The notes beneath the pieces were generated by a model. It searched no databases. It was not told the origin of the DNA and saw only the letters and a list, made by a program, of their open reading frames with translations. The translations under genes were made by a program, and so were the position numbers. 53,181 nt of DNA. It comes from Gammaproteobacteria bacterium (lineage in GTDB: Bacteria > Pseudomonadota > Gammaproteobacteria > Pseudomonadales > Azotimanducaceae). This document shows, one piece after another, positions 1,815 to 46,556 of this stretch (positions are counted from its first letter, which is position 1; the number at the start of each line of letters is the position of its first letter). Location of the stretch: assembly GCA_032124855.1 (NCBI GenBank), contig JAQBCT010000376.1, forward strand, positions 1 through 53,181, written 5' to 3'.

Positions 1815-4370
1815 ATGACCTTCTCGATCGCCCAGGTTGTCGCCATTCTCATTCTGGCCTGCTCCAGCTTCGGAGCGGGCTGGTTATTGCGCCGCATCCA
1901 GGCCAAAACCCGTGAAGCACAGCTGCACAAGAGTCTGCAGGAAACACGGGACATCATTCCGCAGCTCGAAACCAATGTGCGCAAGCGGGACCAGCGTCTG
2001 GCGGTGCTGAGCGCTGAGCTCGTGGACTGGAAAGACAAGGTTCCGCAGCTGGAAACGTCAGTCAAACGCCAGGCAGGCGAGGTGCACGCTAAAGAGCGCG
2101 AACTGCGACTCGTGCGCACGGAACTCAGCGCGGTCAAGGATGCGCTTGCAGAGGCGCCGCGCCTGGCCGAAGCCGAACGGGCACCACTGCGCGAGGCATT
2201 GAAGACGTGGCAAGCCCGCTGCGATGAGCTGGTGAGTGTGCTGGCCGCAGTGGAGGCGCACCCGCCTCGCCTGGATCAGCCTGGCGATGGTAGCGACGAT
2301 CGGGCGGCTCTTGCCGCACAAGCGGCACGCTCGGACGCTATGGGCGCTGCGCTGCGAGACCGTGAAGCCACGATCAATGAGCTGCGCACGCATCTGGACA
2401 GTGTGGTCGCGCGACGCGACGCGATGGAGATTGAAGCGAGCGAGCGCGCGAACGAAGTGATGAAACTGCGCGATGATGTGGGCAAGTGGCAGGCCCGCGT
2501 ACCCAAGCTGCTGGCAACCATCAAAGCGCGCGAGTCGACGATTGAAGCCCATGCGACAACGTTGGCCGACCGGAATCAGCAGGTCAAAGATCGCGACGGT
2601 GCGCTCGCTCAGCGCGAGATTTTGGGGGCGAAGCGCGAACTCGTGCTCGCCGAGCAGGCCGTGAAACTCGTCGAAGCCGAACGGGCAATCGAGGTGCTGC
2701 GCGGTGAACTCGCCATTCAGCGTGTCGCGGAACAGAAGCTGCACGACGAACTGCAGGTAGCGTCGCAGCGGTTCGCCATCGAAAACACGCGGGTTGCCGA
2801 ACTATCCGCGAAGGTCGACGCGCTGGTCACAACGGTGGCAGAACGTGATGCCACGAACGCAGAGCGCCATACCGCGCTTCAGGAGCGCGATGCCGCGCTC
2901 GAGGGACAGCGGCAGGCCAGCGAACACCAGACCGCCGAATTTCAGGCCTCGCTGGCCCACACCAACAGTCAGCTCGCCACTGCGCTTCGCGTTGGCCGCG
3001 ACGAGCAGGCGAGTCATCGCGATATGGTCGAATCGTTGGTGGCGGAGCGCGATGCCGTCGCGGCCCGCGTAAGAAGCGTCGAACAGGAGCTGGATCAACT
3101 GCGCGCGCAGCAGAGCCAAGCCCTGGCTGCAGAGCAGCTGCGCGCCGAGCACGAATTTGGTCAGCGCACGGAACTTTCGGCGGCGCGTGACCAACTGACG
3201 GAACGACTCAACTCGCTGCAGGCGCAGCTCGCCATGGGCGAACGCCAGCGGGCCGTGGTGGAGGCCGAACGTTCTGCGCTGGCGGAGCGCGCCTCGGCGT
3301 TCCAGGAGCAGCTCACCCAACAGCAGAACGAGCGCGAGGCATTGCAGCGCTCGCACGATGCGACACGCGGCGAGCTGGCAGAGTTGCATACAAAACTCGC
3401 CGAGGCCGAAGCGGCGCAGCACGCGGTGCAGTCGGGCGCGGCGAACATGGATGCGCAGATCGTTGAACTGCAGGAACAGCGCACCGCGCGTGAATCGGAT
3501 CTGACGACCGTGCGTGCTTCGCTTGATCAGTCCCACGCGCAGAGCAGCGAGCTGCAAAGTGCGCTGCAGCAGCGCGATGCGGAGATGGTGGTGCTGCGAG
3601 CCGAACTGGCCACAGGACCTGCGCGGGTCGCGCCATTGGAGAGAATGCTCAAAGCACGCGATGCGGCCATCGTGGAGCGCAGCGAGCGCATCGACACGCT
3701 CACCAGTCAGATCGAGACCTTGGATGCGACGTTGCGGCAACGTGCGAGTCGCATCAGCGAGTTGGAGAAGCAAGTCACCGATGCAGCCGCGGTGGAAGGA
3801 GACGGCGACGTTCGAAAAACCGAATACCTCGAGCAGCGCGTTGCGGCGCAGATCGAAAAGAACCGGGAGCAGTCCCGATTGCTTGACGAACGCGATCGCG
3901 AAGTTGCGGCCTTGACCAAGCAGCGCGATCTCAATGACAAGTCGCTGACGGTGCTCAAACAACAGCTCGACGGTGCGCGCGACTCCGAAGCGCGGCTTGC
4001 AGAATTGCTGCGGACGCTCAAGAGCGAAGCACTCGCAGGTGCTGCCACGGAGCCCTCCGAGTCCGCAGCGATCGCGCCTAACGGACTGCTTCAGGCGCGT
4101 CCTGAAGCAGTGGATGACCTGCAACAGATTCGCGGCATCGGTGAGGGGTTCGAGCGGGGCTTGAACAAGCTTGGAATTTACCGCTACAGCCAGCTGGCTG
4201 GGTTGTCGGCCGCCGAGATCGTATGGATCGAAAATCAGCTGCCGACATTCCGTGGCCGCATCGAGCGCGACGATTGGCCCACCCAGGCGGCGCAACTGCT
4301 CGCGCAAGACGGCGGCAATGATTGGACGTTGCGCGCGCCGGATGCCCCGACCGTGCACGGGCTCAACTAA
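1815..4370 (+). CDS. Membrane-anchored long coiled-coil protein with C-terminal helix-hairpin-helix module
   Basis: ORF 1815..4370 (851 aa). It starts with a hydrophobic N-terminal helix, IAQVVAILILACSSFGAGWLL. About 750 aa of A/E/R/L/Q-rich coiled-coil-like sequence follow, with no Walker A motif. The C-terminal DDLQQIRGIGEGFERGLNKLGIYRYSQLAGL...FRGRIERDDW resembles the HhH module seen as a C-terminal extension of some NuoE proteins. Confidence 0.7.
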   Translation: MTFSIAQVVAILILACSSFGAGWLLRRIQAKTREAQLHKSLQETRDIIPQLETNVRKRDQRLAVLSAELVDWKDKVPQLETSVKRQAGEVHAKERELRLVRTELSAVKDALAEAPRLAEAERAPLREALKTWQARCDELVSVLAAVEAHPPRLDQPGDGSDDRAALAAQAARSDAMGAALRDREATINELRTHLDSVVARRDAMEIEASERANEVMKLRDDVGKWQARVPKLLATIKARESTIEAHATTLADRNQQVKDRDGALAQREILGAKRELVLAEQAVKLVEAERAIEVLRGELAIQRVAEQKLHDELQVASQRFAIENTRVAELSAKVDALVTTVAERDATNAERHTALQERDAALEGQRQASEHQTAEFQASLAHTNSQLATALRVGRDEQASHRDMVESLVAERDAVAARVRSVEQELDQLRAQQSQALAAEQLRAEHEFGQRTELSAARDQLTERLNSLQAQLAMGERQRAVVEAERSALAERASAFQEQLTQQQNEREALQRSHDATRGELAELHTKLAEAEAAQHAVQSGAANMDAQIVELQEQRTARESDLTTVRASLDQSHAQSSELQSALQQRDAEMVVLRAELATGPARVAPLERMLKARDAAIVERSERIDTLTSQIETLDATLRQRASRISELEKQVTDAAAVEGDGDVRKTEYLEQRVAAQIEKNREQSRLLDERDREVAALTKQRDLNDKSLTVLKQQLDGARDSEARLAELLRTLKSEALAGAATEPSESAAIAPNGLLQARPEAVDDLQQIRGIGEGFERGLNKLGIYRYSQLAGLSAAEIVWIENQLPTFRGRIERDDWPTQAAQLLAQDGGNDWTLRAPDAPTVHGLN

Positions 4371-4415
4371 CCTGATAGGCGTACACTGCCGAACCCGCCC
4401 GAGTTCGGAGTCCCT

Positions 4416-5741
4416 GTGACCACCACCACTGCAGCGTTCGATGTCGCATTTCGCGCTGAGCAATTCATAGACAGTCTGAAACGCGATGGCGTCGCTGGCC
4501 GACTGTTCGGCCACAGCCGCGAACGCACCGAACTCGCCAGCCACACGCTGTACGGCGGCAGTGGCGGCATCATTCTCTTCTACCTCGAGTTGTACGCGGC
4601 CACCGCACAGACCCGGTATCTCGATGTCGCGCGCTCGGCAGCGCGCGAACTCGCCGCGTATGTGCGCTCCACCCAGCGGCAATCGTGCGCCATCTATACG
4701 GGCTGGCCGGGCCACGCGTTCGTGCTGAGCCAAGCGGCAAAAGCGGCGGGTGATGCGGATCTGCGCCAGGCGGCGGTGCTGTGCCTGGATCGCCTGCGCG
4801 AAAGCGCCCATGAACTTGGCGCTGGCATTGGCTGGATTGAGCCCATGCCGTTTTCCGATATCCACGGCTTCAAGGGCGACCGCGAAATCTACGATGCGTC
4901 CGTCGGTGCGGCTGGCGCGGGCTTCGTGCTGCTGCGCGCCCCACGAGATGATCTGCATCCCCAGGCGCTTGCGTGGGCAACGGGTGTGGGCGATCGGCTG
5001 TTGGAGGTCGCGGATGCGACGCCGCACGGCTTGAACTGGGCGCTGATGTCCGAGATGCCGTTTGCCTGGACGCCGTCGAACTTTGCCCACGGCGCCGCGG
5101 GTGTCGGTGCGTTCATGGCGATGTTGTACGAAGCAACCGGACACGCCCGCTTTCTCGATGCGGCGCGCGCGGCGGCGGCGCATCTGATGCATCTCTCAAG
5201 CCCTGCAGGCGACGGTCATCTTGTTCACCACCATGACGGCGATGGTGAAAACCTGTTCTATCTCTCGGTATGCCACGGACCACCGGGCACCACCCGCCTG
5301 TTCTACCTGCTGCAGCGCATCACTGGCGAGGCTCAGTACGAACAGTGGCAGGACGGCGCATTTCGCGGGCTGCTCAGCACAGGTGCGCCAGAGACGCGCT
5401 CGGCGGGATTCTGGAACAACGTGTCGCAGTGTTGCGGTGATGCGGGGGTGGGCGACTACGCGTTGCAGAGCTATCACGCCAATGGTGATGCGCGCTATCT
5501 GGAACTTGCGGAGCGCGAGGCGGCCGAGCTGGTGCGGCGCAGTGTGGCCGTTGGCGACGGTCTGTGCTGGCCGCAGGCGGAGCATCGCGAGCGGCCGAAA
5601 TATCTGGAGGCTCAGACGGGCTACATGCAGGGTGCAGCGGGTATCGGCAGCTTCTTTGTGCACCTGGCAACCACCCGAGCGGGTCGGCCTGTGAAGATCG
5701 CCTTTCCCGATACGCCGTTCGCCGACGCGCCCGGGGATTGA
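4416..5741 (+). CDS. LanC-like (lanthionine synthetase C family) protein
   Basis: GTG start at 4416 with GGAG upstream. There are seven GxxG-type repeats typical of the LanC alpha-toroid: YGGSGG, GWPGHAF, VGAAGAG, FAHGAAGVG, VCHGPPG, QCCGDAGVG, QGAAGIG. Confidence 0.75.
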   Translation: MTTTTAAFDVAFRAEQFIDSLKRDGVAGRLFGHSRERTELASHTLYGGSGGIILFYLELYAATAQTRYLDVARSAARELAAYVRSTQRQSCAIYTGWPGHAFVLSQAAKAAGDADLRQAAVLCLDRLRESAHELGAGIGWIEPMPFSDIHGFKGDREIYDASVGAAGAGFVLLRAPRDDLHPQALAWATGVGDRLLEVADATPHGLNWALMSEMPFAWTPSNFAHGAAGVGAFMAMLYEATGHARFLDAARAAAAHLMHLSSPAGDGHLVHHHDGDGENLFYLSVCHGPPGTTRLFYLLQRITGEAQYEQWQDGAFRGLLSTGAPETRSAGFWNNVSQCCGDAGVGDYALQSYHANGDARYLELAEREAAELVRRSVAVGDGLCWPQAEHRERPKYLEAQTGYMQGAAGIGSFFVHLATTRAGRPVKIAFPDTPFADAPGD

Positions 5742-27150: not shown

Positions 27151-27266
27151 GTGGGAGGGGTTTCAGCCGCGATCAACTGTCTGATTCCATGAGAATCAAT
27201 CGCGCCTGAAGGCGCTCCCACAAGTTCCAATCAGACTTTTACGACACTCACTGAAGCCCTTCCTAC
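27151..27266. repeat. Composite REP/MITE-like element, about 116 bp (same family as 18513-18630)
   Basis: GTGGGAGGGGTTTCAGCCGCGATC (27151-27174), internal ATCGCGCCTGAAGGCGCTCCCACAAG, and terminal CTGAAGCCCTTCCTAC (27251-27266). The right-hand ~65 bp is near-identical to the element at 18513-18630. Confidence 0.7.
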
Positions 27267-27492
27267 ACAGCTCTCCGCCGCCGAAGCGCGCTACTACAAA
27301 ACAGCGCGGGCGCTCGCGCATGGCAACGACTACGTCGACTGGGGTGGGGTGAGCAAACGAACCATGAATGACTGGGTCAGCGTCAGGGCGCTGACGGCGT
27401 TGCACGCGGCCGCGCCACTGCTGAAGCGGCACGGTCCACTCGGGGTCTCTATTCGTCTATGATCGAACCCGCCAATACGGAGGAATCAAGCC

Positions 27493-27972
27493 ATGGCCAA
27501 GTTCAATGACCTCACGATGAAATCCATCACCGGAGAGGCTGTCGCCTTTTCCAGTTTCAAGGACAAGGTCTGCCTCGTCGTCAACGTCGCGAGTCAGTGA
27601 GGCCTCACCCCGCAGTACGCAGGTCTGCGTACCCTTCATGAAGATAACAAGGCCAAGGGCTTCGCGGTCCTGGGCTTCCCGTGTAATCAGTTCGGAAAAC
27701 AGGAACCCGGCAGCAATGCTGAGGTCCTGAAATTCGCCCAGTCCAAATATGACGTCACGTTTCCGATGTTTGAGAAGATCGAGGTCAACGGCGCCGGCGC
27801 GTGTGATCTCTACCAGCATCTGAAAGCGGAGCAGAAGGACGAAGACGGCAAGGCCGATATCGGCTGGAACTTCACGAAGTTCCTCGTCGATCGAAAAGGT
27901 GAGGTCATTGCACGCTTCGGGCCGAAGACCACGCCAGAAGAGATCGCCGCGGTGCTGCCGAAGTATCTTTGA
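27493..27972 (+). CDS. gpx: Glutathione peroxidase with in-frame UGA at the catalytic position (candidate selenocysteine GPx)
   Basis: RBS GGAGGA at 27479-27484 and ATG at 27493. Codon 36 is TGA (27598-27600). The same frame then stays open to the TGA stop at 27970-27972 and joins track ORF 27766..27972. Translation reads ...KVCLVVNVASQ-U-GLTPQYAGLRTL...GFAVLGFPCNQFGKQEPG...WNFTKFLVDRKGEV. The UGA sits where GPx/BtuE homologues have Cys (NVAS.CG.T). The Gln, Trp and Asn tetrad blocks are intact. Confidence 0.7.
27615..27632 (+). promoter_or_regulatory. SECIS-like mRNA hairpin downstream of the in-frame UGA
   Basis: GTACGCA-GGTC-TGCGTAC is a perfect 7-bp stem plus tetraloop, or 8 bp if the GT centre is ignored. 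It starts 14 nt after the UGA. Its apical GCAGGUCUGC is the same decamer I recall from the E. coli fdhF SECIS. Confidence 0.55.
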
Positions 27973-27979
27973 TGCGCGC

Positions 27980-28007
27980 GAGCGCTTCAGCTGAAGCTGA
28001 AGCGCTC
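27980..28007. terminator. Bidirectional hairpin between the convergent gpx and SDR genes (REP-related sequence)
   Basis: GAGCGCTTCAG-CTGAAG-CTGAAGCGCTC gives an 11-bp perfect stem. It begins 8 nt after the gpx stop and overlaps the last codons and stop of the SDR gene. There is no clear T-tract. Confidence 0.4.
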
Positions 28008-28961
28008 CCCGCACAGCCGTTCGGAGAGTTCCCACAAGCGCTCCGCAGCCGCTGGATCCAGCGCATCTGCGTTCACGCCGCTGATGCGTTCGCCCTCTGC
28101 GGCCGTCTTCGCCACGTTGCAGTCCTCCAGGTATTGCCCGCCGTGGCCGTCCAGCAGTTTCGATGTGGCGGCCCAGGTCGCAGTGGCGGCACCACCCTGC
28201 ACGGTCTTGAAGCCTTCGCGCGGTTTGCCGTTCTCATCGAACCAGCCCATGGCGTTCATTTCATCGAACGTCAGATCCTTCTGCAGGCCCGTCATGATGC
28301 CGCCGGGGTGCACGGCAAATGCGCGCACGCCGGCGTCGCATAGTCGCTTATCGAGACCCACGGTAAACAGCACGTTGGCCGTCTTGGCCTGACCATAGGC
28401 CTGCCACTTATCGTACGCGCGTCGTTCAAAATGCGGATCGTCGAAATCCACGCCGGCGATTTTGTGCCCGGTGGAGGAGAGATTGACCACGCGCGCCGGC
28501 GCACCGCGGCGCAATGCCGGCGCCAGCAGACACGTCAGCAGAAAGTGACCCATGTGATTGGTCGCGAACTGCGATTCCCAGCCGGCCTCGGAGCGCGCCA
28601 GAGGACACGCCATGATGCCGGCGTTGTTGATCAGAATGTGCAGGGGCGCACCCGTATCGAGAAACGATTTCGCAAAGGCGCGTACGCTGGCCGGATCGAT
28701 GAGATCCATCTCTGCCACGCGCATGTTGTCGTTGCCAGTGTCGGCTCGGATGTCCGCGGCCACCGCTTCACCCTTCGCCATGCTGCGCACGGGCAGCCAT
28801 AGGTTCGCGCCCGCTTTGGCCAGTGCACGCGCAGCTTCAACACCGATGCCCGATGCCGCGCCGGTGACGATCGCGGTTTTGCCCGCGAGGTTGATCTGCT
28901 TCACCACCTCCAGGGCCGTCGAACCGTGCCCGAAAGGCGAATTGATGGGTTGCTGTGCCAT
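27987..28961 (-). CDS. Short-chain dehydrogenase/reductase (SDR) family oxidoreductase
   Basis: ATG at 28961 (RBS GGAGAA) in ORF 27987..29033. Contains TGAASGIG (TGxxxGxG), NNAG and the YGQAK catalytic YxxxK. Confidence 0.85.
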   Translation of the reverse strand: MAQQPINSPFGHGSTALEVVKQINLAGKTAIVTGAASGIGVEAARALAKAGANLWLPVRSMAKGEAVAADIRADTGNDNMRVAEMDLIDPASVRAFAKSFLDTGAPLHILINNAGIMACPLARSEAGWESQFATNHMGHFLLTCLLAPALRRGAPARVVNLSSTGHKIAGVDFDDPHFERRAYDKWQAYGQAKTANVLFTVGLDKRLCDAGVRAFAVHPGGIMTGLQKDLTFDEMNAMGWFDENGKPREGFKTVQGGAATATWAATSKLLDGHGGQYLEDCNVAKTAAEGERISGVNADALDPAAAERLWELSERLCGERFSFS

Positions 28962-34377: not shown

Positions 34378-35337
34378 ATGAATTCCCGTGAAGCCTTTCA
34401 ACACATCACCGCCGCGATGAACGCGGCGGTGATCGGCCAGGAAAGGGTAGTTGAACGTCTGCTGATTGCGTTCCTTGCGGACGGTCACGTGCTGATGGAA
34501 GGCCTGCCGGGTGTGGCGAAGACCCGCTCCATCAAGACGCTGGGCAAACTCGTAGAGAGCGAGTTCCGGCGCGTGCAGTTCACGCCGGATCTGCTGCCCG
34601 GCGATGTCACGGGCTCCGAGATCTACCGCGAGCAGACCGGCAGTTTCGAATTCCAGCCGGGCCCTCTGTTTGGCAATCTCGTGCTGGCCGATGAGATCAA
34701 CCGTGCGCCGGCAAAGGTGCAGGCAGCGTTGCTTGAGGCCATGGAAGAACGCCAGGTCACTGTGGCCGGCACCACCCACGCACTGCCACAACTCTTTCTC
34801 GTCCTCGCCACCCAGAATCCCATCGAGCAGGAAGGTACATATCCTTTGCCCGAAGCGCAGATGGACCGCTTCCTGCTGTACGTCAACGTGCCGTATCCGC
34901 CGGCTGCGAACGAGACCGCCATCATGCGACTGGTGCGCGGTGAAAAATCCGGCGCGGCCGGGCAACCGCCGCCGAAGATCGCACAGCAACTGATCTTCGC
35001 CGCGCGCGAAGAAGTCAACGCCGTCCATGTCTCGGAAGCAGCGGAACGCTACATCGTCGATCTGGTGATCGGCACGCGCGAGCCACAGCGCCACGGTGGC
35101 GATCTCGCAAAATGGATCCGTCTGGGCGCCAGTCCGCGCGGCACGCTGGCGCTGGATGCTGCATCGCGCGCGCACGCGTGGCTGCACGACCAGGATTTCG
35201 TGTCACCGGAAAGCATCCGGGCCGTGGCACCAGCCTGTCTCGCACATCGTGTACATCTGTCCTACGAAGCGGAAGCCGCCGGCAAAACCCGCAGCGAAGT
35301 CATCGAGGCGTTGTTGCAGGTCGTCGTACCTGTCTGA
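34378..35337 (+). CDS. MoxR-family AAA+ ATPase
   Basis: ORF 34378..35337. Walker A is GLPGVAKT, Walker B/sensor is LLADEINRAPAKVQAALLEAMEE, and the QNPIEQEGTYPLPEAQ.DRF block is present. Confidence 0.9.
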   Translation: MNSREAFQHITAAMNAAVIGQERVVERLLIAFLADGHVLMEGLPGVAKTRSIKTLGKLVESEFRRVQFTPDLLPGDVTGSEIYREQTGSFEFQPGPLFGNLVLADEINRAPAKVQAALLEAMEERQVTVAGTTHALPQLFLVLATQNPIEQEGTYPLPEAQMDRFLLYVNVPYPPAANETAIMRLVRGEKSGAAGQPPPKIAQQLIFAAREEVNAVHVSEAAERYIVDLVIGTREPQRHGGDLAKWIRLGASPRGTLALDAASRAHAWLHDQDFVSPESIRAVAPACLAHRVHLSYEAEAAGKTRSEVIEALLQVVVPV

Positions 35338-35350
35338 GAGTCACATCCCT

Positions 35351-36274
35351 ATGCAAGCTGGTGTCACCATCGCGCTCGACGAACTGATCCAGCTCAAGGC
35401 CGACGCGCACGGTTTCAGCTTTCTGCCACGCCAACCGGTTACGTCACTGCTCTCGGGTCGGCATGCCTCGCGCTTGCGCGGTCGCGGCCTCGCGTTCGAA
35501 GAGTTGCGCCGCTACGCCCAGGGTGACGATGTGCGCACCATCGACTGGCGTGCCACGGCGCGGCTTCGCTCCCCGCATGTGCGTGTATACAGCGAGGAAC
35601 GTGAACGGCCCGTGTTGTTGGTGGTGGATCAACGTCGCGCGATGTTTTTCGGCAGCCGCCGTGCAATGAAGTCGGTGGCGGCCGCTGAGGTGGCAGCGTT
35701 GGGCGCGTGGCGCGCGCTGGCAGGCGGTGATCGCGTGGGCGGCATCGTGTTCAACGACAACGAAATAGTTGAGCTGCGCCGCCATCGCAGCCAGACACGC
35801 GTGTTGCGTGTGCTCCATGAAGTGGCGCGGCTCAATCAGTTGCTTGCGCAGCCCGCTGAATCGCAAGTCAGCCGGGTGAGCTTGAACCACGCGCTGGAGG
35901 CCGCAACGCGGCGTGCGCAACACGACCATCTGGTGGTGCTGATCAGCGATCTGGACGGCGCCGATGAACACACTCATCGGCTTGCAACTCTGCTCGCCGC
36001 ACACAACGACGTGCTGGTGGTGGGCATCTATGATCCACTGGGCGCATCGTTGCGCGGCCGAGACGGCATGTTTGCCACCGATCGCGGCGCCACGTACGCC
36101 ATTCCCGCGGGAGCCGCATTTGCGCAGGCATTTCGGCAGGCTTTTGCGGCGCACATCGGCCAGTGGCGGGAGCTGTTTCGCGCGTTGCGCGTTCCGGTGA
36201 TCCCGATTTCCACGGCGGCGCCGCCCGCACAACAACTGCGCGAGCTGTTCGGCCGGCAGTCCGCAGGGCAATGA
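35351..36274 (+). CDS. DUF58 domain protein (MoxR-associated, vWA-like)
   Basis: ATG at 35351 in ORF 35096..36274. Contains the characteristic RRYAQGDDVRTIDWRATAR motif. Confidence 0.8.
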   Translation: MQAGVTIALDELIQLKADAHGFSFLPRQPVTSLLSGRHASRLRGRGLAFEELRRYAQGDDVRTIDWRATARLRSPHVRVYSEERERPVLLVVDQRRAMFFGSRRAMKSVAAAEVAALGAWRALAGGDRVGGIVFNDNEIVELRRHRSQTRVLRVLHEVARLNQLLAQPAESQVSRVSLNHALEAATRRAQHDHLVVLISDLDGADEHTHRLATLLAAHNDVLVVGIYDPLGASLRGRDGMFATDRGATYAIPAGAAFAQAFRQAFAAHIGQWRELFRALRVPVIPISTAAPPAQQLRELFGRQSAGQ

Positions 36275-36777
36275 ACGAAGCTGCCACCAGTCTCGATCGC
36301 CTGCACGACATCGCGCTGCCCGCGCCGGTGCCGTGGTGGCCGCCAGCACCCGGCTGGTATGCACTGTTCGTACTGCTTACGGTGGTCGCCGCATGGATGG
36401 CCTGGCGCGCGTGGCAAGGATGGCGCGCCAACGCCTATCGCCGCGCCGCGTTGCGCGAACTTGATGCGCTGGGTGATGCGGCAGCCATCGCGGAACTGTT
36501 ACGCCGCACCGCCCTGGTGATCGCGCCGCGAAGTGTTGTCGCAGCAAATACGGGCATCGGCTGGACCAACTGGCTCGACGCGAACGCGCGGGAACCGATG
36601 CCCGTCGCGGTGCAGCAGTTGCTCATCGCCGGCGTCTATGGCCGACCCACTTCGCATCGTGAGCTCAGCGCGTTACGCGCTTATGCAGCGCGCTGGATCA
36701 CGCATCACTCGCCAGCTTCGCTCCGTGGTGCGGCGCCAATGGAACGCGTGAATCCACCAATAGGGAAAAACTCATGA
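36271..36777 (+). CDS. DUF4381 domain protein (single TM)
   Basis: ATG at 36271 makes an ATGA overlap with the DUF58 stop. Sequence: LHDIALPAPVPWWPPAPGWYALFVLLTVV... It sits in the canonical position after MoxR and DUF58 in Bat-type operons. Confidence 0.65.
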   Translation: MNEAATSLDRLHDIALPAPVPWWPPAPGWYALFVLLTVVAAWMAWRAWQGWRANAYRRAALRELDALGDAAAIAELLRRTALVIAPRSVVAANTGIGWTNWLDANAREPMPVAVQQLLIAGVYGRPTSHRELSALRAYAARWITHHSPASLRGAAPMERVNPPIGKNS

Positions 36778-38531
36778 TGAATAGCCGACCAACCGGGTCC
36801 AGCACATCGGCGCTGGTACTGGGGGTAGCGTTTTTACTCTCTGCGGGCGTCTGCGCACCCAGTGCCGCAGGAGACGCAGCGCCAGCGCCCAGGCTCATTC
36901 TGCAGATCACGGTGGATCAGTTGCGCGGCGATCTGCCGAACCGTTTCGTCCGGAACATGGGCGCCGGCGGCTTTCGCTATCTCATGGAGCAAGGCATCTG
37001 GTATGCGGACGCGAATTACTCCCACGCCAACACGGAAACCATCGTGGGCCACACATCACTCGCAACCGGCGCGTACCCGTCGGCACATGGCATGGTCGCC
37101 AATGTCTGGCTGGATCGCACAACCGGCAAGCTCACGTACAACATAGAGGATCCGCGTTATCACATCCTCACACCGGGCGCGGACGTGGACAAGACAACTG
37201 AGATCGATCCAACCCAGAAGGTGGCATCCACCGACGGTCGCTCACCTGCGGCTATTGAAGTGTCGACGTTCAGCGACGAGCTGGCCATTCGCACGGCCGG
37301 AAAAGCCAAGCTGTTTGGCGTGTCGGTGAAAGATCGCGGCGCGGTGTCGATGGCGGGACATGCCGGCAAGGCATTCTGGTTTTCGAAGAAGTCGGGTGAG
37401 TTCGTCACCAGCTCTTACTACTACGACCGCTACCCGGCCTGGGTGAGCGCATGGAATGCCAAGAAGCCGGCCGGGAGCTATTCCGGTAAGTCATGGCAGC
37501 TGCTGCGCGAACAGGCAACGTACGCATTCGGCGGCAGTGATGACGCACCCTGGGAGACCGACTTCCCCGGCTATGGGCGTGTCTTTCCGCATCCCTACGG
37601 TGCGGCGGACAGCAAATATTTCACAACCCTGCTGACACTCAGCCCTGCGGGGGATGCACTCACGCTCGACTTCGCCAAGTCGCTGATCGACTCCGAGCAG
37701 CTAGGCCAGGACGATGTCCCCGACTACCTTTCAATCAGCTTTTCATCGACAGACTACGTGGGACATCTGTTTGGCCCTTCCAGTCTCGAGATGGAAGACA
37801 ACATCTTGCGTTTAGATCGCACCCTTGCAGATCTGTTTGCGTATGTCGACGAACACGTAGGCTTGAGCAATACGTTGATCGTGCTATCGGCGGATCATGG
37901 CGGCCCGGAAATTCCTGGCTATCTGAACACGCTTGGCATCGATGCGGCCTACGTGACACCCGATGCGTGGGACAAAGCGCCGACAATGAACAGGCTCAAG
38001 CAGAAGTTTGGAATTGCCGGCGAACTGATCCAGTCTTACTTCCATCCGTATTTGTATCTGAACAGAGACGCCATTGCGGCAAGAGGTCTCGATCAAGCGG
38101 AAGTGGAACAGATGGTGGCAGACGAGCTGATGAAGTTCGACGGTGTGGCGCTGGCGGTGTCGAGCAGGGCACTGCGTGACGGCCACCTGCCGGATACGCC
38201 GCTGATCCGCTCTGCGTTGAGAAACTACAACCCGAAGCGTTCGGGCGATATCTATCTGATCTTCGAGCCGGACCATTACATCAACGACTTCGACGGCCTG
38301 ACGGTGGCATCTACGCATGGCTCGCCGTGGCGCTATGACACGTTCGTACCCGTGGTGTTTGCGGGTGGCCCCGCGCGGGGGCAACAGGTCTATCGCGCGA
38401 TCGAGCCCACAGACATTGCACCGACGCTGGCGGCGGTCGTCGGTGCCAAACCGCCATCGGGCGCCCGCGGTGGGCCATTAATGGAAGTGATGGAAAGTTT
38501 CGAGCGGCAGGCTGAAGTGCCAGCGCGCTGA
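36774..38531 (+). CDS. Alkaline phosphatase-superfamily enzyme (nucleotide pyrophosphatase/phosphodiesterase or PafA-like) with signal peptide
   Basis: ORF 36774..38531, with an ATGA overlap onto the DUF4381 stop. It has a signal-like N-terminus, plus ITVDQLRGD, SFSSTDYVGHLFGP and VLSADHGGPE. Confidence 0.8.
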   Translation: MMNSRPTGSSTSALVLGVAFLLSAGVCAPSAAGDAAPAPRLILQITVDQLRGDLPNRFVRNMGAGGFRYLMEQGIWYADANYSHANTETIVGHTSLATGAYPSAHGMVANVWLDRTTGKLTYNIEDPRYHILTPGADVDKTTEIDPTQKVASTDGRSPAAIEVSTFSDELAIRTAGKAKLFGVSVKDRGAVSMAGHAGKAFWFSKKSGEFVTSSYYYDRYPAWVSAWNAKKPAGSYSGKSWQLLREQATYAFGGSDDAPWETDFPGYGRVFPHPYGAADSKYFTTLLTLSPAGDALTLDFAKSLIDSEQLGQDDVPDYLSISFSSTDYVGHLFGPSSLEMEDNILRLDRTLADLFAYVDEHVGLSNTLIVLSADHGGPEIPGYLNTLGIDAAYVTPDAWDKAPTMNRLKQKFGIAGELIQSYFHPYLYLNRDAIAARGLDQAEVEQMVADELMKFDGVALAVSSRALRDGHLPDTPLIRSALRNYNPKRSGDIYLIFEPDHYINDFDGLTVASTHGSPWRYDTFVPVVFAGGPARGQQVYRAIEPTDIAPTLAAVVGAKPPSGARGGPLMEVMESFERQAEVPAR

Positions 38532-38545
38532 TAGCCGGACGCCGC

Positions 38546-38965
38546 ATGCTCACCTTCACGCATCTCTGGATTTTCGCTGCGTTGCCGCTGCCGTGGCTGC
38601 TGCGCGCAGTGTGGCCGGCGCCGCAGATAACCACGGCGCTCGCATTCGAACCCCGCGCGAGCGTCGCTACGCACGTCGGTGGTGCCTGGGCGGACTGGCT
38701 CGATCTGCGCGCCGCGCAGCCGATGTCGCAGGAAGTGCGGCAGTGTCTGACTGTTGGCGTGTACCAGGTCCCCGCGCAGAGCGATGTCGAACTATTGCGC
38801 GCCTACGCAGCTGCATGGATTGCCCACCACCGCGTTTGGGTGGTTGTAGGAGGGGCTTCAGCCCCGATCCTTGTAGCAGGCTACTCCACAGGGATCGGGG
38901 CTGAAGCCCCTCCTACAACAGCGATTGGGGCTGAAGCCCCTCCCACAGTGGGCTCCCACCGATAG
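38546..38965 (+). pseudogene. Chimeric batA-5' / DUF4381-3' duplicate running into REP sequence (remnant or small paralogue)
   Basis: The first ~27 codons, MLTFTHLWIFAALPLPWLLRAVWPAPQ, parallel the BatA N-terminus MLTLTYLWMFALLPLPWLVRALLPARR. Residues WADWLD..PMSQEVRQCLTVGVY....LLRAYAAAWIAHH parallel the DUF4381 C-terminus WTNWLD..PMPVAVQQLLIAGVY...LRAYAARWITHH. The tail VVGGASAPILVAGYSTGIGAEAPPTT is translated REP. Confidence 0.5.
38846..38946. repeat. REP cluster: perfect 25-bp inverted repeat plus a third unit
   Basis: GTAGGAGGGGCTTCAGCCCCGATCC (38846-38870) and GGATCGGGGCTGAAGCCCCTCCTAC (38892-38916) are exact reverse complements. A third unit, GATTGGGGCTGAAGCCCCTCCCAC, lies at 38923-38946. 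Confidence 0.75.
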
Positions 38966-38974
38966 CGAGACGCC

Positions 38975-40012
38975 ATGCTCACCCTCACCTACCTCTGGAT
39001 GTTCGCCCTGCTGCCGCTGCCATGGCTGGTACGTGCGCTGTTACCCGCGCGGCGCGCAACCGAGGTGGCTGTTCGGGTGCCGTTCGGCGAACGCTTGCGT
39101 GCCGCATCCGTCGCGGCAGGCACCGGATCGCGCGCAGCGAGCAATCTGTCACGTCAGTGGACGCCTGCATTGATCTGGCTTCTGGTGCTCACCGCGCTGG
39201 CGCGTCCACAGTGGCTGGAGCCGCCCATCACGCGTGACCTGCCGGCGCGCGATCTCCTGTTGCTGGTAGACCTTTCGCTTTCGATGCGACAGGAGGATTT
39301 TAACAACATGGCCGGGGCGCAGGTGGACCGCCTCACGGCGGTCAAGGAAGTCGTGGGGGATTTTCTGTCGCGCCGCACCGGCGACCGGGTTGCGCTGGTG
39401 GTATTCGGTGATGCGCCATTCCTGCAGGCGCCGTTCTCCAACGATCTCCATCTGTCGCGACAGCTGCTGGAAGAAACCGAAATCGGCATGGCGGGAGCGC
39501 GCACGGCTTTCGGCGATGCCATCGGACTCGGCATCACGCTGTTCGAACAAAGCGATGCGCCAGCCAAGACGATCATTGCGTTGACCGACGGCAACGACAC
39601 AGCGAGCCAGGTGCCGCCCATCGAAGCGGCACGCATCGCTGCCGAGCGCGGCATTCGCATTCATGCTGTTGCAATCGGCGACCCCACCACCCTGGGTGAG
39701 GAAAAACTGGATGAGGCGGTCCTGCGCGACGTGGCACACACGGCGGACGGGACCTACTTCTACGCCGGCGACCGGGTGCAGCTGGCCGGCATTTACGACG
39801 AACTGGATCGCATTGAGACGCGCCAGGTGGAAGTCGTCAGCTACCGCCCGCGCCGCGAGCTGTTCTTCTGGCCCCTGCTGGCCGCGCTGTTGCTGTCGCT
39901 GGCGGAGAAGGCGCTGTACTTGCTGCGCGGCTCGCGCGAGGTGCGCAGCGCGCAGGTCCTTGAATCGGTGCATGTGGATCCGCTCAGCGGTCGCCTCGAG
40001 GTGCGCACGTGA
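38975..40012 (+). CDS. batA: vWA domain protein, BatA type
   Basis: ORF 38975..40012. It has an N-terminal TM, the MIDAS motif LLLLVDLSLSM (DxSxS), a vWA fold, and a C-terminal TM (FFWPLLAALLLSL). Confidence 0.85.
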   Translation: MLTLTYLWMFALLPLPWLVRALLPARRATEVAVRVPFGERLRAASVAAGTGSRAASNLSRQWTPALIWLLVLTALARPQWLEPPITRDLPARDLLLLVDLSLSMRQEDFNNMAGAQVDRLTAVKEVVGDFLSRRTGDRVALVVFGDAPFLQAPFSNDLHLSRQLLEETEIGMAGARTAFGDAIGLGITLFEQSDAPAKTIIALTDGNDTASQVPPIEAARIAAERGIRIHAVAIGDPTTLGEEKLDEAVLRDVAHTADGTYFYAGDRVQLAGIYDELDRIETRQVEVVSYRPRRELFFWPLLAALLLSLAEKALYLLRGSREVRSAQVLESVHVDPLSGRLEVRT

Positions 40013-40929
40013 TGGACCCGGCCGCCAGCCTGCACTTCATTCGCCCGCTTGCGCTGCTGCTCGCGCCCCTGGCCATGGGCGTGTGGTGGTTCTGGCAGCG
40101 TCACGCCGATCCGTTGCGGGGCTGGCGCGAACAGATTGCGCCCGGCCTGCTGGTTGCACTGACCGTGGGCCACACGACGCAAAGCAAGGGGCCGGCCCGC
40201 TGTCTGTTGGCAGCGTGGCTGCTGGCCGTGGTTGCAATCGCCGGCCCCACGTGGCGCCTGGAACCCAGTCCATTCGCCGACGACGCCAGCCCGATGCTGC
40301 TGTTGCTGAAGGCCGACATGAGCATGGAGCAGCCGGACCCGGCACCGTCACGGTTAGTGCGCGCGCGTCTGAAGATCGCCGACATCGCCGCGGCGCGCGC
40401 GGGCCAACCGCTGGGTTTGATTGCCTACGCCGGCTCCGCGCATCTCGTGCTGCCGCCCACGCGCGACACCGCCGTCCTTGCGACCCTGGCCCAGGAAATC
40501 GATCCGGACATCATGCCGCTGGCCGGCGATCGACTCGATCTGGCGCTGGCGGAAGCGGACCGCGTGCTGCGACATGGTGGTCGCGGCGGCAGCGTCGTCG
40601 TGCTGGCCGACACGGTCGATATGGATATCGGGGCGCTGCGCCAGCCATCCGAGTTCCCGGTGCAATTCCTGGCGATCAACACAGCACAGGGTGTCGGACT
40701 CGATGCGCTGCGCAATGCCGCACGCATCCTTGATGCGCCCGTGGAACTGCTCGACGTCAGCGGCGCCGATGTCGCGGCGGTTGTGCGCCGCGCTGCGCAT
40801 ACGCCCAGCGCCGAGCGCGGCGAACGCAGCGACCAGTGGCAGGAGAGCGGCTATTGGCTGGTACCGCTCCTGGGGATGCTTGTTCTACTGGCCTTTCGCC
40901 GTGACAGCAAAGCGGCGTCCCCTGCGTGA
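40009..40929 (+). CDS. batB: vWA domain protein, BatB type (degenerate MIDAS)
   Basis: ORF 40009..40929, with a 4-nt overlap onto batA. It has N-terminal TMs and a vWA-like core with DMSME in place of DxSxS, then a C-terminal TM. Confidence 0.65.
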   Translation: MMDPAASLHFIRPLALLLAPLAMGVWWFWQRHADPLRGWREQIAPGLLVALTVGHTTQSKGPARCLLAAWLLAVVAIAGPTWRLEPSPFADDASPMLLLLKADMSMEQPDPAPSRLVRARLKIADIAAARAGQPLGLIAYAGSAHLVLPPTRDTAVLATLAQEIDPDIMPLAGDRLDLALAEADRVLRHGGRGGSVVVLADTVDMDIGALRQPSEFPVQFLAINTAQGVGLDALRNAARILDAPVELLDVSGADVAAVVRRAAHTPSAERGERSDQWQESGYWLVPLLGMLVLLAFRRDSKAASPA

Positions 40930-41510
40930 AAGCGTTAGCCGTCGCCGCGGCAATGACATGGATCGGCCTGTGGCTGACGCCGGATCAGCAGGGGCAACGC
41001 GATTTTGTGCGCGGTGAGTTCGCTGCAGCTGCCACGCAATTCCAGGATCCGATGTGGCAGGGCGCGGCCTGGTATCGAGCGGGCGAATTTGAAAAGTCGG
41101 CCGCAGCATTTGCGCGCCGTGACACGGCCGATGCGCACTTCAACGAAGGGAATGCCCGGTTGATGCTGGGCAAGTACGAAGCTGCCATCGCCTGCTACGA
41201 CCGTGCACTGGCAATGCGTGGCGACTGGAGCGAAGCGATTGAGAATCGCGCGCTCGCCCAGGCACGCGCAAAACTGGTTGAACAGAAGGGCGGTGAGATG
41301 GGCGATCAGAAGATTGGCGCCGACGAGATCGTGTTCGACAGCAAGGCAGAGAAGCAGGGCCAGGAGACCGAGGTCGCCGGCGGCGATGCATTGTCGGATA
41401 AGGAGATCCAGGCGCTGTGGTTACGTCGTGTGCAGACGCGCCCGGCGGATTTTCTGCGTGCGAAGTTCGCCTACCAGCTTGCTGCGGACGGCGAGGGGTC
41501 AGCGCCATGA
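40926..41510 (+). CDS. batC: TPR-repeat protein, BatC type
   Basis: GTG start at 40926 with a 4-nt overlap. TPR-like sequence: GAAWYRAGEFEKSAAAF...FNEGNARLMLGKYEAAIACYDRAL. The C-terminal LWLRRVQTRPADFLRAKF is typical of BatC. Confidence 0.65.
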   Translation: MKALAVAAAMTWIGLWLTPDQQGQRDFVRGEFAAAATQFQDPMWQGAAWYRAGEFEKSAAAFARRDTADAHFNEGNARLMLGKYEAAIACYDRALAMRGDWSEAIENRALAQARAKLVEQKGGEMGDQKIGADEIVFDSKAEKQGQETEVAGGDALSDKEIQALWLRRVQTRPADFLRAKFAYQLAADGEGSAP

Positions 41511-43752: not shown

Positions 43753-43812
43753 CCCCCTTCTCGCGCATCGTTGATACCATCGCGGTTCGATGAATCGTTT
43801 GGAGATTTGGTC

Positions 43813-44295
43813 ATGCTGACACTGAACGTGAACGGCAAGGCCTATGCCTTGGAGGATGTGGACCCCGACACGCCATTGCTGTGGGTGCTGCGCGACAACC
43901 TCAATCTCGTTGGCGCGAAATATGGTTGCGGCATCGGCCAGTGCGGTGCCTGTACGGTGCTGGTGGATGGCACGCCCGTGCGTTCGTGTTCGTACAGCGT
44001 TGCCATCGCCGCTGAGCACGCCGTGACGACCGTGGAAGGGCTGGCCGTAGCAGAGGATTCGTTGCATGTGCTGCAACAGGCCTGGATCGATCTGGACGTT
44101 GCGCAGTGCGGGTACTGCCAGGCAGGTCAGCTGATGTCGGCGGCGGCGCTGCTCGCCAAAAAACCCGAACCCAGTGACGACGACATCGATGCGGCGCTGG
44201 CCGGCAATCTGTGCCGGTGCGGTACGTATCTACGCATTCGCGCAGCGATTCACGCGGCGGCGAAGGCCGCGCAGACACAGGAGGCCGGCGCATGA
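43813..44295 (+). CDS. (2Fe-2S)-binding small subunit of a molybdopterin oxidoreductase (IorA/aldehyde oxidase type)
   Basis: ATG at 43813 (RBS GGAGA) in ORF 43771..44295. Cys clusters: [12 protein letters not shown] and QCGYCQAGQ...CRCGTY. Confidence 0.9.
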
Positions 44296-46556
44296 ACAGG
44301 CACCTGTCCTATCACAGCGACAACTTTCTCGCCGAGCACGAAGCCGCCGCGACGGGCGGCGCCTCAGGCGTTGTTGATGTGCGCAAGCTAGGCCGACGTC
44401 GCTTTCTGCAGCTCACGGGTGTCGCCGGTGGTGGTCTCATGCTGGGTGTCAGCGTGGCCTGCGGTGAACGCAGCAGTGCAACCGCCGCCAACGTCGGCGA
44501 ATTCGCGCCGAACGCCTATCTGAGGATTTCGGAATCCGGCATCGTGATCTGCGCACCGAACCCGGAAGTCGGGCAGGGCGTGAAGACCGCGTTGCCGATG
44601 ATCGTGGCGGAAGAGCTGGATGCGGCGTGGACCGACGTGCGTGTGGAGCAGTCTGCGATCGATGCCGCGCTGTATGCCCGTCAGGTGGCCGGTGGGTCGC
44701 GCTCGATTCCGGCAGAGTGGGACGTACTGCGCCAGGTGGGCGCGGCGGCGCGTTCGATGCTGGTATCTGCCGCCGCCGCGCGCTGGGGCGTGGCCGAAGC
44801 GCAGTGCAGCACGGCAGACAGCACAGTGCACCACACTGCCAGCGGGCGCAGCCTGCGCTACGTGGAGCTCGCCAACGATGCCGCTCGGCTGCGCGTGCCG
44901 GACGCGAAACGCGTCGCGCTGAAGTCGCGCGCCGACTACACGTTACTTGGCCGGCGCATCAGCGGCGTCGACAACCGCTCCCTGGTAACAGGACAACCGC
45001 TGTTCGGCATCGATCAGGTGCAGCCCGGCATGCGCTACGCCGTGTATCAGAAATGTCCGGCCACGGGTGGCAGCGTGGTCAGCGCCAATCTCGATGCCGT
45101 CAAAAAGCTGCCCGGCGTGCTGGATGCGTTCGTGCTGAAGGGCAACGGCAACGTCGGCGAACTCATGCCGGGGGTGGCCATCGTTGCAAGGAGCACCTGG
45201 GCTGCGCTGCAAGCCAAGCAACAGCTGCAGGTGCAGTGGGATGAAACCGGTGCGGCGAAAGACAGCTGGGACGCAACGATTGCGCAAGCCAATGCCGCAA
45301 TGCGTTCCGGCGGTGGTGACGTGATTGCGGATCGCGGCCAGGTCGATGCCGCGTTCGCGGCGGCGCCGGTGACGCGCGAAGCGCACTACCGCTATGCCTT
45401 CGCCTCGCATGCGCAGCTGGAGCCGCAGAATTGCACGGCCTGGTTCCGCGACGGTTCCATCGAACTGTGGGCGCCAACGCAGACGCCGCAGCGCGGCCTT
45501 GCGAGCGTGGCAGCCACGCTTGGCATTGCACCCGATAAAGTCACCGTGCATCAGACGCGCGCGGGCGGCGGCTTCGGCCGGCGGCTGACGAACGACTCCA
45601 TGTGCGAGGCGGCGGCGATCGCGCAACGCGTGGACGCGCCGGTGAAGCTGCAATGGACGCGGGAAGACGATATGAATCACGACTTCTTCCGCGCGGGCGG
45701 CTTTCACGAATTGAAGGGTGCGGTGGACGCGGCCGGCAAACTGTCCGCGTGGCAGCAGCACTTCGTGACATTCGCCCGCGATGGTGCACTCGTGTCTGGC
45801 GGTGGCATGTCGGATCAGATTTTCCCAAGTCCCATGCTCGCCAACTATCGCCTCACCCAGACGAGTCTCGCGTGGGATACGCCGTGCGGTGCGTGGCGCG
45901 CGCCCGGATCGAATGTCTACAGCTTCGTGGTACAGAGTTTTCTGCATGAGATGGCTGTGGCAGCCAAGCGCGATCACCTGGAGTTCCTGCTTGAAGTATT
46001 CGGCGAGCCGCGCTGGTTTGAGGAAGGTAACTTATGGTCGGTGCACACGGGCCGCGCCGCAGCGGTGATCAAACTGGCGGCGCAGCGCGCCGGTTGGGGA
46101 CAACCCATGCCGCAGGGGCGCGCGCTGGGGCTTGCGTTCTACTTCAGCCATGCAGGGCACATTGCCGAAGTGGCCGATGTCAGTGTCTCATCTGACAAGA
46201 AGATCAAGGTGCATCGGGTGACCGTGGTGGCCGATGTCGGTCCCATCGTCAATCTCAGCATGGCGGAGAACCAGTGCCAGGGTTCGGTGGTGGATGGTTT
46301 ATCCACGATGCTCGCGCAGAAGATCACGATCGAGAATGGTCGCATCGAGCAGCAGAATTTCGATCAGTACGCGCTACTGCGCATGCCGCACACACCGCAG
46401 GTGGACGTGCACTTTATCGCCAGTGATTTCCCACCCACTGGGTTGGGCGAACCGGCGCTGCCGCCGCTCGCACCCGCCGTATGCAACGCGATCTACAGCG
46501 CAAGCGGCCATCGCATTCGCACGTTACCGATCGCTGAGGAAGGATTTTCAGTCTGA
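44292..46556 (+). CDS. Molybdopterin-dependent oxidoreductase large subunit (IorB / xanthine dehydrogenase family) with Tat signal
   Basis: ATG at 44292 makes an ATGA overlap. Twin-arginine motif [15 protein letters not shown]. The protein is about 754 aa and has the aldehyde oxidase/xanthine dehydrogenase Moco-binding layout. Confidence 0.9.

Follow-up and report, generated by a model that had tools for sequence, protein, structure and literature searches.

Does a TGA codon inside an otherwise intact glutathione peroxidase (GPx) gene mark a broken gene, or is it read as selenocysteine (Sec)? The locus that raises this question lies at 27493-27972 on the forward strand of the window, by which we mean the whole contig that was analyzed (53,181 bp, ~63% GC). 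Translated, the segment gives 159 sense codons, codon 36 included, and one internal stop, the TGA at 27598-27600 (Table 1).

Reading frame and family identity

An earlier, sequence-only reading of this locus had described a 159-codon protein that starts at ATG 27493 with GGAGGA 8 nt upstream, is broken once by TGA at its peroxidatic residue, and keeps the motifs FPCNQFG.QEP and WNFTKFL; it had also remarked that the ORF track holds just the last 68 codons and a long antisense ORF. All of these elements are confirmed. The translation contains VNVASQ-U-GLT, FPCNQFGKQEP and WNFTKFL, each of them intact, and the mechanical ORF list gives only 27766..27972 (+, 68 aa) and the antisense frame 27457..28035 (-, 192 aa) at the locus. 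The start codon is further backed by full-length homologues of 159 aa that open with M[AS]KF[NH]D.

When codon 36 is read as Cys, the protein matches the Pfam GSHPx domain (PF00255) at 6.2e-41 and 138.8 bits (cut-off 27), covering profile positions 2-108 of 108, and its matches among solved structures in the PDB (1e-43 to 1e-35) are yeast Hyr1/Gpx3, Schistosoma GPx and human GPx4. The label "GPx/BtuE-type" given by the sequence-only reading therefore stood in its first half but not in its second: at 168 bits against the NCBIfam BtuE equivalog cut-off of 270, a BtuE orthologue is ruled out, and the protein also scores under the NCBIfam Gpx7 equivalog cut-off. Codon 36 aligns with the peroxidatic Cys of 73 Cys homologues from reference genomes and with that of the solved structures. 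Among the other homologues, 25 DNA-verified ones also have TGA at this codon, and 73+64 have TGC or TGT. The catalytic tetrad, made up of U36 (the TGA), Q70, W125 and N126, lies entirely in invariant alignment columns, with Gln70 aligned to FPCNQFGKQEPGSN of the GPx4-derived chains among the solved structures, and residues U36-G-L-T39 supply the U-x-x-T redox motif within the GSHPx domain.

Table 1. Features at and around the GPx locus (positions in the window)
Feature	Position	Strand	Remarks
Shine-Dalgarno GGAGGA	27479..27484	+	8 nt 5' of ATG 27493; from reading the sequence
Predicted selenoprotein GPx CDS	27493..27972	+	159 codons including Sec36, plus the terminating TGA
In-frame UGA, codon 36	27598..27600	+	Peroxidatic Cys/Sec position; U-G-L-T (UxxT) motif
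Putative bacterial SECIS hairpin	27615..27632	+	Within codons Q41-T47
Gln70 codon	27700..27702	+	Tetrad Gln in GKQEP; invariant in 12/12 Sec forms and 72/73 Cys forms
Ala82 codon	27736..27738	+	Resolving-Cys position of thioredoxin-dependent 2-Cys GPx; aligns with Hyr1/Gpx3 Cys82
Cys104 codon	27802..27804	+	Clade-typical Cys in place of the usual His
Trp125-Asn126 codons	27865..27870	+	Tetrad Trp and Asn in WNFTKF; invariant in 85/85 aligned homologues
Terminating TGA of the GPx gene	27970..27972	+	No SECIS behind it
Perfect 12-bp palindrome GAGCGCTTCAGC-TGAA-GCTGAAGCGCTC	27980..28007	.	Between the convergent GPx and SDR genes

The internal TGA recurs in independent assemblies. An NCBI MAG (GCA_032122735.1) holds a near-identical 15-kb contig, with 4 mismatches in 14,959 bp, and contigs assembled independently from four runs (ERR5010711, -15, -21 and -22) also carry the GPx gene. 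Over 580 bp that include the RBS, TGA, hairpin and stop, all five assemblies are the same as the window, an agreement that stands in for a read pile-up. Looking up the accessions of the MAG and the runs in the literature gave no result. The expectation that automated annotation would break the gene was borne out in these five public assemblies, where callers give pieces of 35 and 68 aa. In short Logan contigs, an 85-aa "gene" is also placed upstream of GPx. We dismissed it as an edge artefact, since its frame stays open only by running into the contig ends, the longer contig has no such call, and no start-to-stop ORF upstream of GPx in the window reaches 40 aa.

Of the 44 likely genes in the window, 29 stop at TGA, and so does the GPx gene itself, which rules out a genome-wide reassignment of UGA (code 4 or 25). 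UGA is thus an ordinary stop here, and any other reading of it at codon 36 must come from its local context. A search of the window by GC3 signature returned nine other in-frame-TGA candidates, none of which was retained: known genes read in an antisense frame account for eight, and the ninth comes from TGA 27460, an in-frame stop upstream of the GPx gene's own start.

Pfam and NCBIfam searches of ~40 window genes returned ordinary chromosomal functions, none of them selenium-related. DNA polymerase II and RND and EmrA-type efflux genes are among the neighbors in the window; the polymerase is 66-68% identical to proteins labeled Steroidobacter/Steroidobacteraceae, Sulfurifustis and, in many cases, "Gammaproteobacteria bacterium", which together with the efflux genes points to a gammaproteobacterium, probably uncultured, as the source. 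With E. coli queries, tblastn found no homologue of SelA, SelB or SelD in the window; the first 80 related loci gave just two hits, both weak (L035 and L080, which carry Cys-form GPx). The tRNA scan found no tRNA in the window, and no tRNA-Sec in the window or in 13 related loci. Few 53-kb stretches of a multi-megabase genome would be expected to hold sel genes. No synteny was found between the window and the named loci, and the promoter scan upstream of GPx found no sigma-70-like site. Downstream, the palindrome overlaps the 3' end of the SDR gene (27987-28961, minus strand); the terminator scan left it unflagged and it has no T tract, and it is likely a shared transcript-end hairpin without a T-run.

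The hairpin behind the TGA

Fifteen nucleotides after the UGA lies a hairpin of 7 bp with a 4-nt loop, in which the arms GUACGCA (5', 27615-27621) and UGCGUAC (3', 27626-27632) enclose the loop GGUC (27622-27625). The distance from UGA to loop is 21 nt and the fold energy is -9.5 kcal/mol. The published model of bacterial SECIS elements (bSECIS) describes a loop of 3-9 nt with G in its first two positions, a stem of 4-16 bp, 16-37 nt between UGA and loop, and an MFE of -7.5 kcal/mol or lower (PMC13188914); the GPx hairpin lies within all four published constraints. The 10-nt apex, GCAGGUCUGC, is the same as that of the experimentally defined E. coli fdhF SECIS (NC_000913) and occurs once in the window. 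Since single-sequence folding energy is unremarkable and uninformative in such GC-rich DNA (z = -0.07 for 63 nt), the support for this hairpin is comparative, not thermodynamic. Rfam gave no match over the whole window at gathering thresholds, no eukaryotic SECIS match at the GPx locus, and no relevant family in a permissive search of 27450-28050, where the few faint matches amount to noise; Rfam seems to contain no model for bacterial SECIS elements.

A scan for GPx loci that took one genome per species yielded 80 loci. The 11 closest to the window in a neighbor-joining (NJ) tree (L001-L004 and L006-L012) have TGA at codon 36 and the rest have TGC or TGT; hosts of the 11 are Acidimicrobiales/Ilumatobacteraceae, Gammaproteobacteria/Pseudomonadales and one "Deltaproteobacteria" MAG. 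In all 12 genome-derived TGA forms (window gene counted), the peptide QYAGLR is written with the codons CAG TAC GCA GGT CTG CGT while the flanking codons drift, and 25 Cys forms with the same QYAGL peptide use 2-5 codons per position. Nine further TGA forms, all with this hairpin core, came from a metagenome scan. Among the 120 closest relatives in a collection of 5.8 billion proteins, 41 are TGA forms, of which 27 are stored with Trp at position 36, via code-4 gene calls, and 14 as fragments of 122-124 aa that start just after the TGA.

DNA was fetched for those few of the 41 that differ in the hairpin peptide. In L172, L173 and L174, ACA...UGU replaces GCA...CGU, which exchanges the pair G22-C31 for A22-U31 at the cost of A43T and R46C; in L176, UAU...CAU turns C21-G32 into U21-A32; L177 has a G.U intermediate in the stem, and L175 has lost the basal stem pair alone. 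The GGUC loop is invariant across these variants (L172-L177). In an alignment of 26 TGA forms, standard pairs make up 98.9% of cells, and both partners have changed in two of the seven pairs; the covariation score of these 26 sequences was reached by none of 500 shuffles, and slid registers collapse. The hairpin core of the window gene is the consensus, shared by 20 of the 25 other DNA-verified TGA forms. This 18-nt SECIS core is essentially fixed across phyla and dictates the peptide QYAGLR(T/A/V): here the RNA constrains the protein, and compensatory stem changes have been accepted despite two amino-acid substitutions.

Two Cys forms are nested in the TGA clade of a 14-leaf locus tree, L005 and L006b, the latter a Cys paralogue directly upstream of L006's Sec copy, and their hairpins are degraded (-4.6 kcal/mol with a mismatch, or destroyed). 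This decay matches the "remnant SECIS" known from Sec-to-Cys conversions (PMC1794560). The 28 residues upstream of the TGA have a mean pairwise identity of 51% among Sec forms, versus 65% downstream; the upstream segment is conserved as protein, and translation must therefore pass through the TGA. The sequence-only reading had suggested a bSECIS-type search and an alignment with Cys and Sec homologues as checks, and had named further disabling mutations in relatives as the sign of a true pseudogene. The search gave a hairpin that agrees with the published model, the alignment gave a clade of TGA forms with a conserved and covarying hairpin, and none of the close TGA relatives has further disabling mutations.

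Decoding of codon 36

We consider it probable (roughly 85%) that 27493-27972 is a functional selenoprotein gene encoding a GPx with Sec36. The proposal of a bacterial Sec-GPx with UGA at its catalytic position, made before any comparison, thus gains support from the hairpin, the TGA clade and the five assemblies. From the intact, conserved UGA/SECIS pair, we infer that the source organism decodes Sec. The product would be a 159-residue, monomeric GPx-family enzyme of the GPx4/PHGPx type with selenocysteine as peroxidatic residue 36. At UGA 27598-27600, the hairpin would direct SelB- and tRNA-Sec-dependent insertion of Sec instead of termination, whereas the second UGA (27970), which has no such hairpin, would terminate the protein.

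Alternatively, the gene could be a fresh pseudogene: a Sec-GPx was inherited, Sec decoding or expression was recently lost, and the UGA now ends the product after 35 residues. This scenario would fit the lack of Sec machinery in the 53-kb window, the frequent loss of selenoproteins and of the Sec trait in bacteria (PMC1794560), and the many Sec/Cys switches in the clade (~13 by the estimate given below). We nevertheless judge it improbable, since the ORF carries no further lesion, neither the RBS nor the hairpin has a flaw, the core of that hairpin has kept its consensus form, and the 580 bp compared in five assemblies show no variation. Moreover, clade lineages that dropped Sec went from TGA to TGC or TGT as their hairpins decayed, and none kept a stop codon. 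An even smaller chance, the slightest of all in our estimate, goes to a sequencing or assembly error over a true TGC or TGT, or to a truncated gene whose product is the downstream ORF of 68 or ~122 aa. Products of 68 aa and 122-124 aa are indeed what gene callers give for this gene and its relatives. Against this reading, the NCBI MAG, the four independently assembled runs and 25 homologues from unrelated samples all carry the same TGA. A protein initiated beyond the TGA would be missing both its peroxidatic residue and the first beta-strands of the fold, and the 35 codons upstream are conserved as protein.

The hairpin evidence indicates selection for recoding but is silent on which residue is inserted. 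The UGA could thus be recoded to another residue, either Cys carried by a tRNA-Sec-like tRNA in a SelB- and SECIS-dependent manner, or Trp or Cys inserted at a low level by near-cognate tRNAs. Some bacteria have been proposed to insert Cys in a SelB-dependent way with tRNA-Sec-like tRNAs, which lends this explanation some plausibility. We still regard it as very improbable: Cys is directly encodable, as the TGC and TGT codons of neighboring clade members illustrate, and maintaining a costly UGA/SECIS pair to insert it would be unparsimonious, while Trp cannot act as a peroxidatic residue. In addition, the resolving Cys is gone in all Sec forms, which fits selenium rather than thiol chemistry.

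Catalytic cycle and relation to known peroxidases

The lack of a resolving Cys separates the Sec forms from typical bacterial Cys-GPx. Ala82 of the window protein aligns with Cys82 (FCQLNYGV) of yeast Hyr1/Gpx3 (structure 3cmi), and Cys at this position occurs in 0/12, 0/9 and 0/41 Sec forms versus 71/73 typical bacterial Cys forms. Cys forms of the near clade (n=79) have Cys82 in 26 cases, Cys79 (one helical turn earlier) in 30 and neither in 23, whereas Cys79 or Cys82 is found in 0/42 Sec forms, the window gene also being without Cys79. Sec and Cys forms are interleaved, with ~13 switches estimated (NJ/Fitch) from a rough NJ tree. In the near clade, Cys104 occurs in 32/41 Sec forms and in 62/79 Cys forms, compared with 8/73 among more distant Cys forms, and it could possibly act as an alternative resolving thiol. 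A wider protein search ruled out Arg46 and Cys104 as Sec-specific residues, as both are also found in the clade's Cys forms.

In the proposed mechanism, the selenolate, activated by Gln70, Trp125 and Asn126, would reduce H2O2 or organic/lipid hydroperoxides and be converted to selenenic acid. With Ala82 in place of a canonical resolving Cys, recycling is therefore probably via an external thiol, as in animal GPx4; the reductant may be glutathione, a different thiol of low molecular weight, or a protein of the thioredoxin or glutaredoxin type that attacks directly. The usual bacterial route, in which an internal disulfide forms and is then reduced by thioredoxin, seems unlikely for this GPx, and the residues present point instead to a cycle with one selenol, in which an external thiol does the recycling.

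The gene belongs to a known family. A prokaryotic GPX-like selenoprotein family (PF00255, UxxT, representative WP_010957027.1) has been known as a high-confidence computational prediction since 2004-2005 (Kryukov & Gladyshev 2004), with five sequences in Sargasso Sea data and 40 Sec versus 3,287 Cys sequences in GOS. Its bacterial type of SECIS is the reason why the literature favors an independent bacterial origin for it; according to a 2026 review, experimental characterization is lacking for every bacterial Sec-GPx. Our gene shares with this family the GSHPx domain, a peroxidatic in-frame UGA in U-x-x-T, a coding-region bacterial SECIS just downstream, and rarity beside abundant Cys homologues. 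No defining feature differs and every testable one is present, and the gene is therefore a member of this family. The clade's invariant fdhF-like SECIS core across phyla, its protein-altering compensation and the exclusion of the resolving Cys from its Sec forms are undescribed in the Sec-GPx literature surveyed, and we regard them as modest additions.

Like the SECIS of E. coli fdhF, the hairpin here follows closely on the UGA within the coding sequence. The two share the apex GCAGGUCUGC, with a GGUC loop whose G and U are contacted by SelB, and even the reading frame of that apex (GCA GGU CUG = Ala-Gly-Leu), although the host proteins are unrelated. They differ in spacing, with the loop 21 nt after the UGA here and 18 nt in fdhF (one codon longer here), and in the stem, which is a continuous 7 bp here and lacks fdhF's bulged U. 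Because its apex is identical to that of fdhF, the gene could plausibly serve for recombinant selenoprotein production in E. coli, although the spacing differs by one codon and the bulged U is missing.

Thioredoxin-dependent atypical 2-Cys GPx (yeast Gpx3/Hyr1, plant GPXL, E. coli BtuE) have the same fold and size as the window protein, typical bacterial Cys-GPx are 50-55% identical to it, and its best solved natural homologue is Hyr1 (3cmi, 1.8e-42). However, UGA replaces the peroxidatic Cys and Ala replaces the resolving Cys82 here, and the defining feature of this group, a resolving Cys, is therefore absent. With animal GPx4/PHGPx, the protein shares a peroxidatic Sec, the Gln/Trp/Asn tetrad partners, the absence of a resolving Cys, and an end-to-end alignment without the oligomerization insert (E ~1e-35 to GPx4 structures). 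The resolving-Cys region of GPx4 reads "EFAAGY", and "FA" is found here and in the Sec-clade consensus. The SECIS, in contrast, is a bacterial, coding-region element, while that of GPx4 is a 3'-UTR kink-turn element, and the protein is no closer to GPx4 in sequence than to yeast Hyr1 (149.7-148 bits vs ~125 bits). This GPx would thus work like animal GPx4 while standing outside the GPx4 lineage, as its bacterial SECIS and its lack of special sequence affinity suggest.

Bacterial GPx have been described as having both a peroxidatic and a resolving Cys, and in animals the acquisition of Sec is proposed to have made the resolving Cys dispensable (PMC8614756). The clade described here shows the same coupling between Sec and the resolving Cys within bacteria. 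We advance a broader scenario tentatively and with the odds somewhat against it: a horizontally scattered clade (found in Gammaproteobacteria, Acidimicrobiales and a "Deltaproteobacteria" MAG) in which Sec gain was repeatedly coupled with loss of the resolving Cys, and which would contain the first bacterial one-selenol, external-thiol, GPx4-like peroxidases. If true, this coupling would be a bacterial parallel to the proposed origin of animal Sec-GPx, and it would contrast with the general view of bacterial GPx as thioredoxin-dependent 2-Cys peroxidases.

The strict absence of a resolving Cys in the Sec forms offers a testable model for the effect of selenium on the GPx cycle and on the choice of reductant. 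Since this gene and 41 of the 120 closest relatives are stored as fragments or Trp-substituted proteins, the antioxidant capacity and selenium use of these environmental bacteria are under-counted.

Database relatives and the upstream gene call

Among the 120 best matches to the selenoprotein glutathione peroxidase (Sec-GPx) in the large protein collection, 41 are selenoproteins that have been stored wrongly. Roughly two-thirds of these (27 of 41; P0007, P0008, P0021 and others) carry tryptophan at the Sec position because genetic code 4 was used for gene calling on their contigs, and the other 14 (P0031, P0057 and others) are fragments in which Leu38, just 3' of the TGA, serves as an alternative start codon. 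Gene calling also placed an 85-87 aa gene upstream of the GPx ORF and in the same frame, ending at the TGA at 27460. We reject this gene as an edge artefact, since it is called only where a contig end leaves the frame open and since no start codon within the window would give it at least 40 aa.

Features discussed in this part, with coordinates
Feature	Location	Strand	Source or context
Called 85-87 aa gene	window 27193-27462	+	gene calls on four short Logan contigs
Stand-alone LanC-like cyclase domain protein and preceding 851-aa protein	window 1815-5741	+	
MoxR AAA+ ATPase, DUF58, two VWA-domain proteins and TPR protein, consecutive	window 34378-41510	+	
Aldehyde-oxidase/xanthine-dehydrogenase-family enzyme: [2Fe-2S] small subunit and molybdopterin-binding large subunit	window 43771-46556	+	
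Perfect 12-bp palindrome, TGAA loop	window 27980-28007		between the GPx gene and the convergent short-chain dehydrogenase gene
Residues 79, 82 and 104 of the clade alignment	window codons 27727-27729, 27736-27738 and 27802-27804		
Two tandem GPx genes	L006 9540-10465		Ilumatobacteraceae MAG JBEBGL010000007.1

Other loci in the window

The palindrome 3' of the GPx gene overlaps the final codons of the short-chain dehydrogenase gene and was not flagged by the terminator scan because it lacks a T-run. About 7 kb from the Sec-GPx gene, the MoxR/DUF58/VWA/TPR row resembles a Bat (aerotolerance)-type operon in its layout, and is a further oxidative-stress-associated locus. The molybdopterin enzyme belongs to the aldehyde-oxidase/xanthine-dehydrogenase family rather than being a formate dehydrogenase; its genes contain no in-frame TGA. 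Elsewhere, the LanC-like protein (441 aa) scores far under all lanthipeptide-synthetase cut-offs, and the coiled-coil, low-complexity protein that precedes it has no real family match.

Resolving thiols and paired Sec and Cys forms

In the clade alignment, the Cys forms (TGC/TGT homologues) of the near clade are split between those with Cys82, the resolving Cys of yeast Hyr1/Gpx3 (26), those with Cys79 (30) and those with neither (23). At position 104, where His is usual, about 78% of the clade has Cys, Sec and Cys forms alike. Together, these residue patterns suggest that the resolving thiol has been relocated in this lineage. In the tandem pair of locus L006, the upstream copy is a Cys form with TGC, a degraded hairpin (the bacterial SECIS) and Cys at position 79, and directly downstream lies a Sec form with TGA and an intact hairpin. 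This pair may represent a Sec/Cys backup for selenium limitation.
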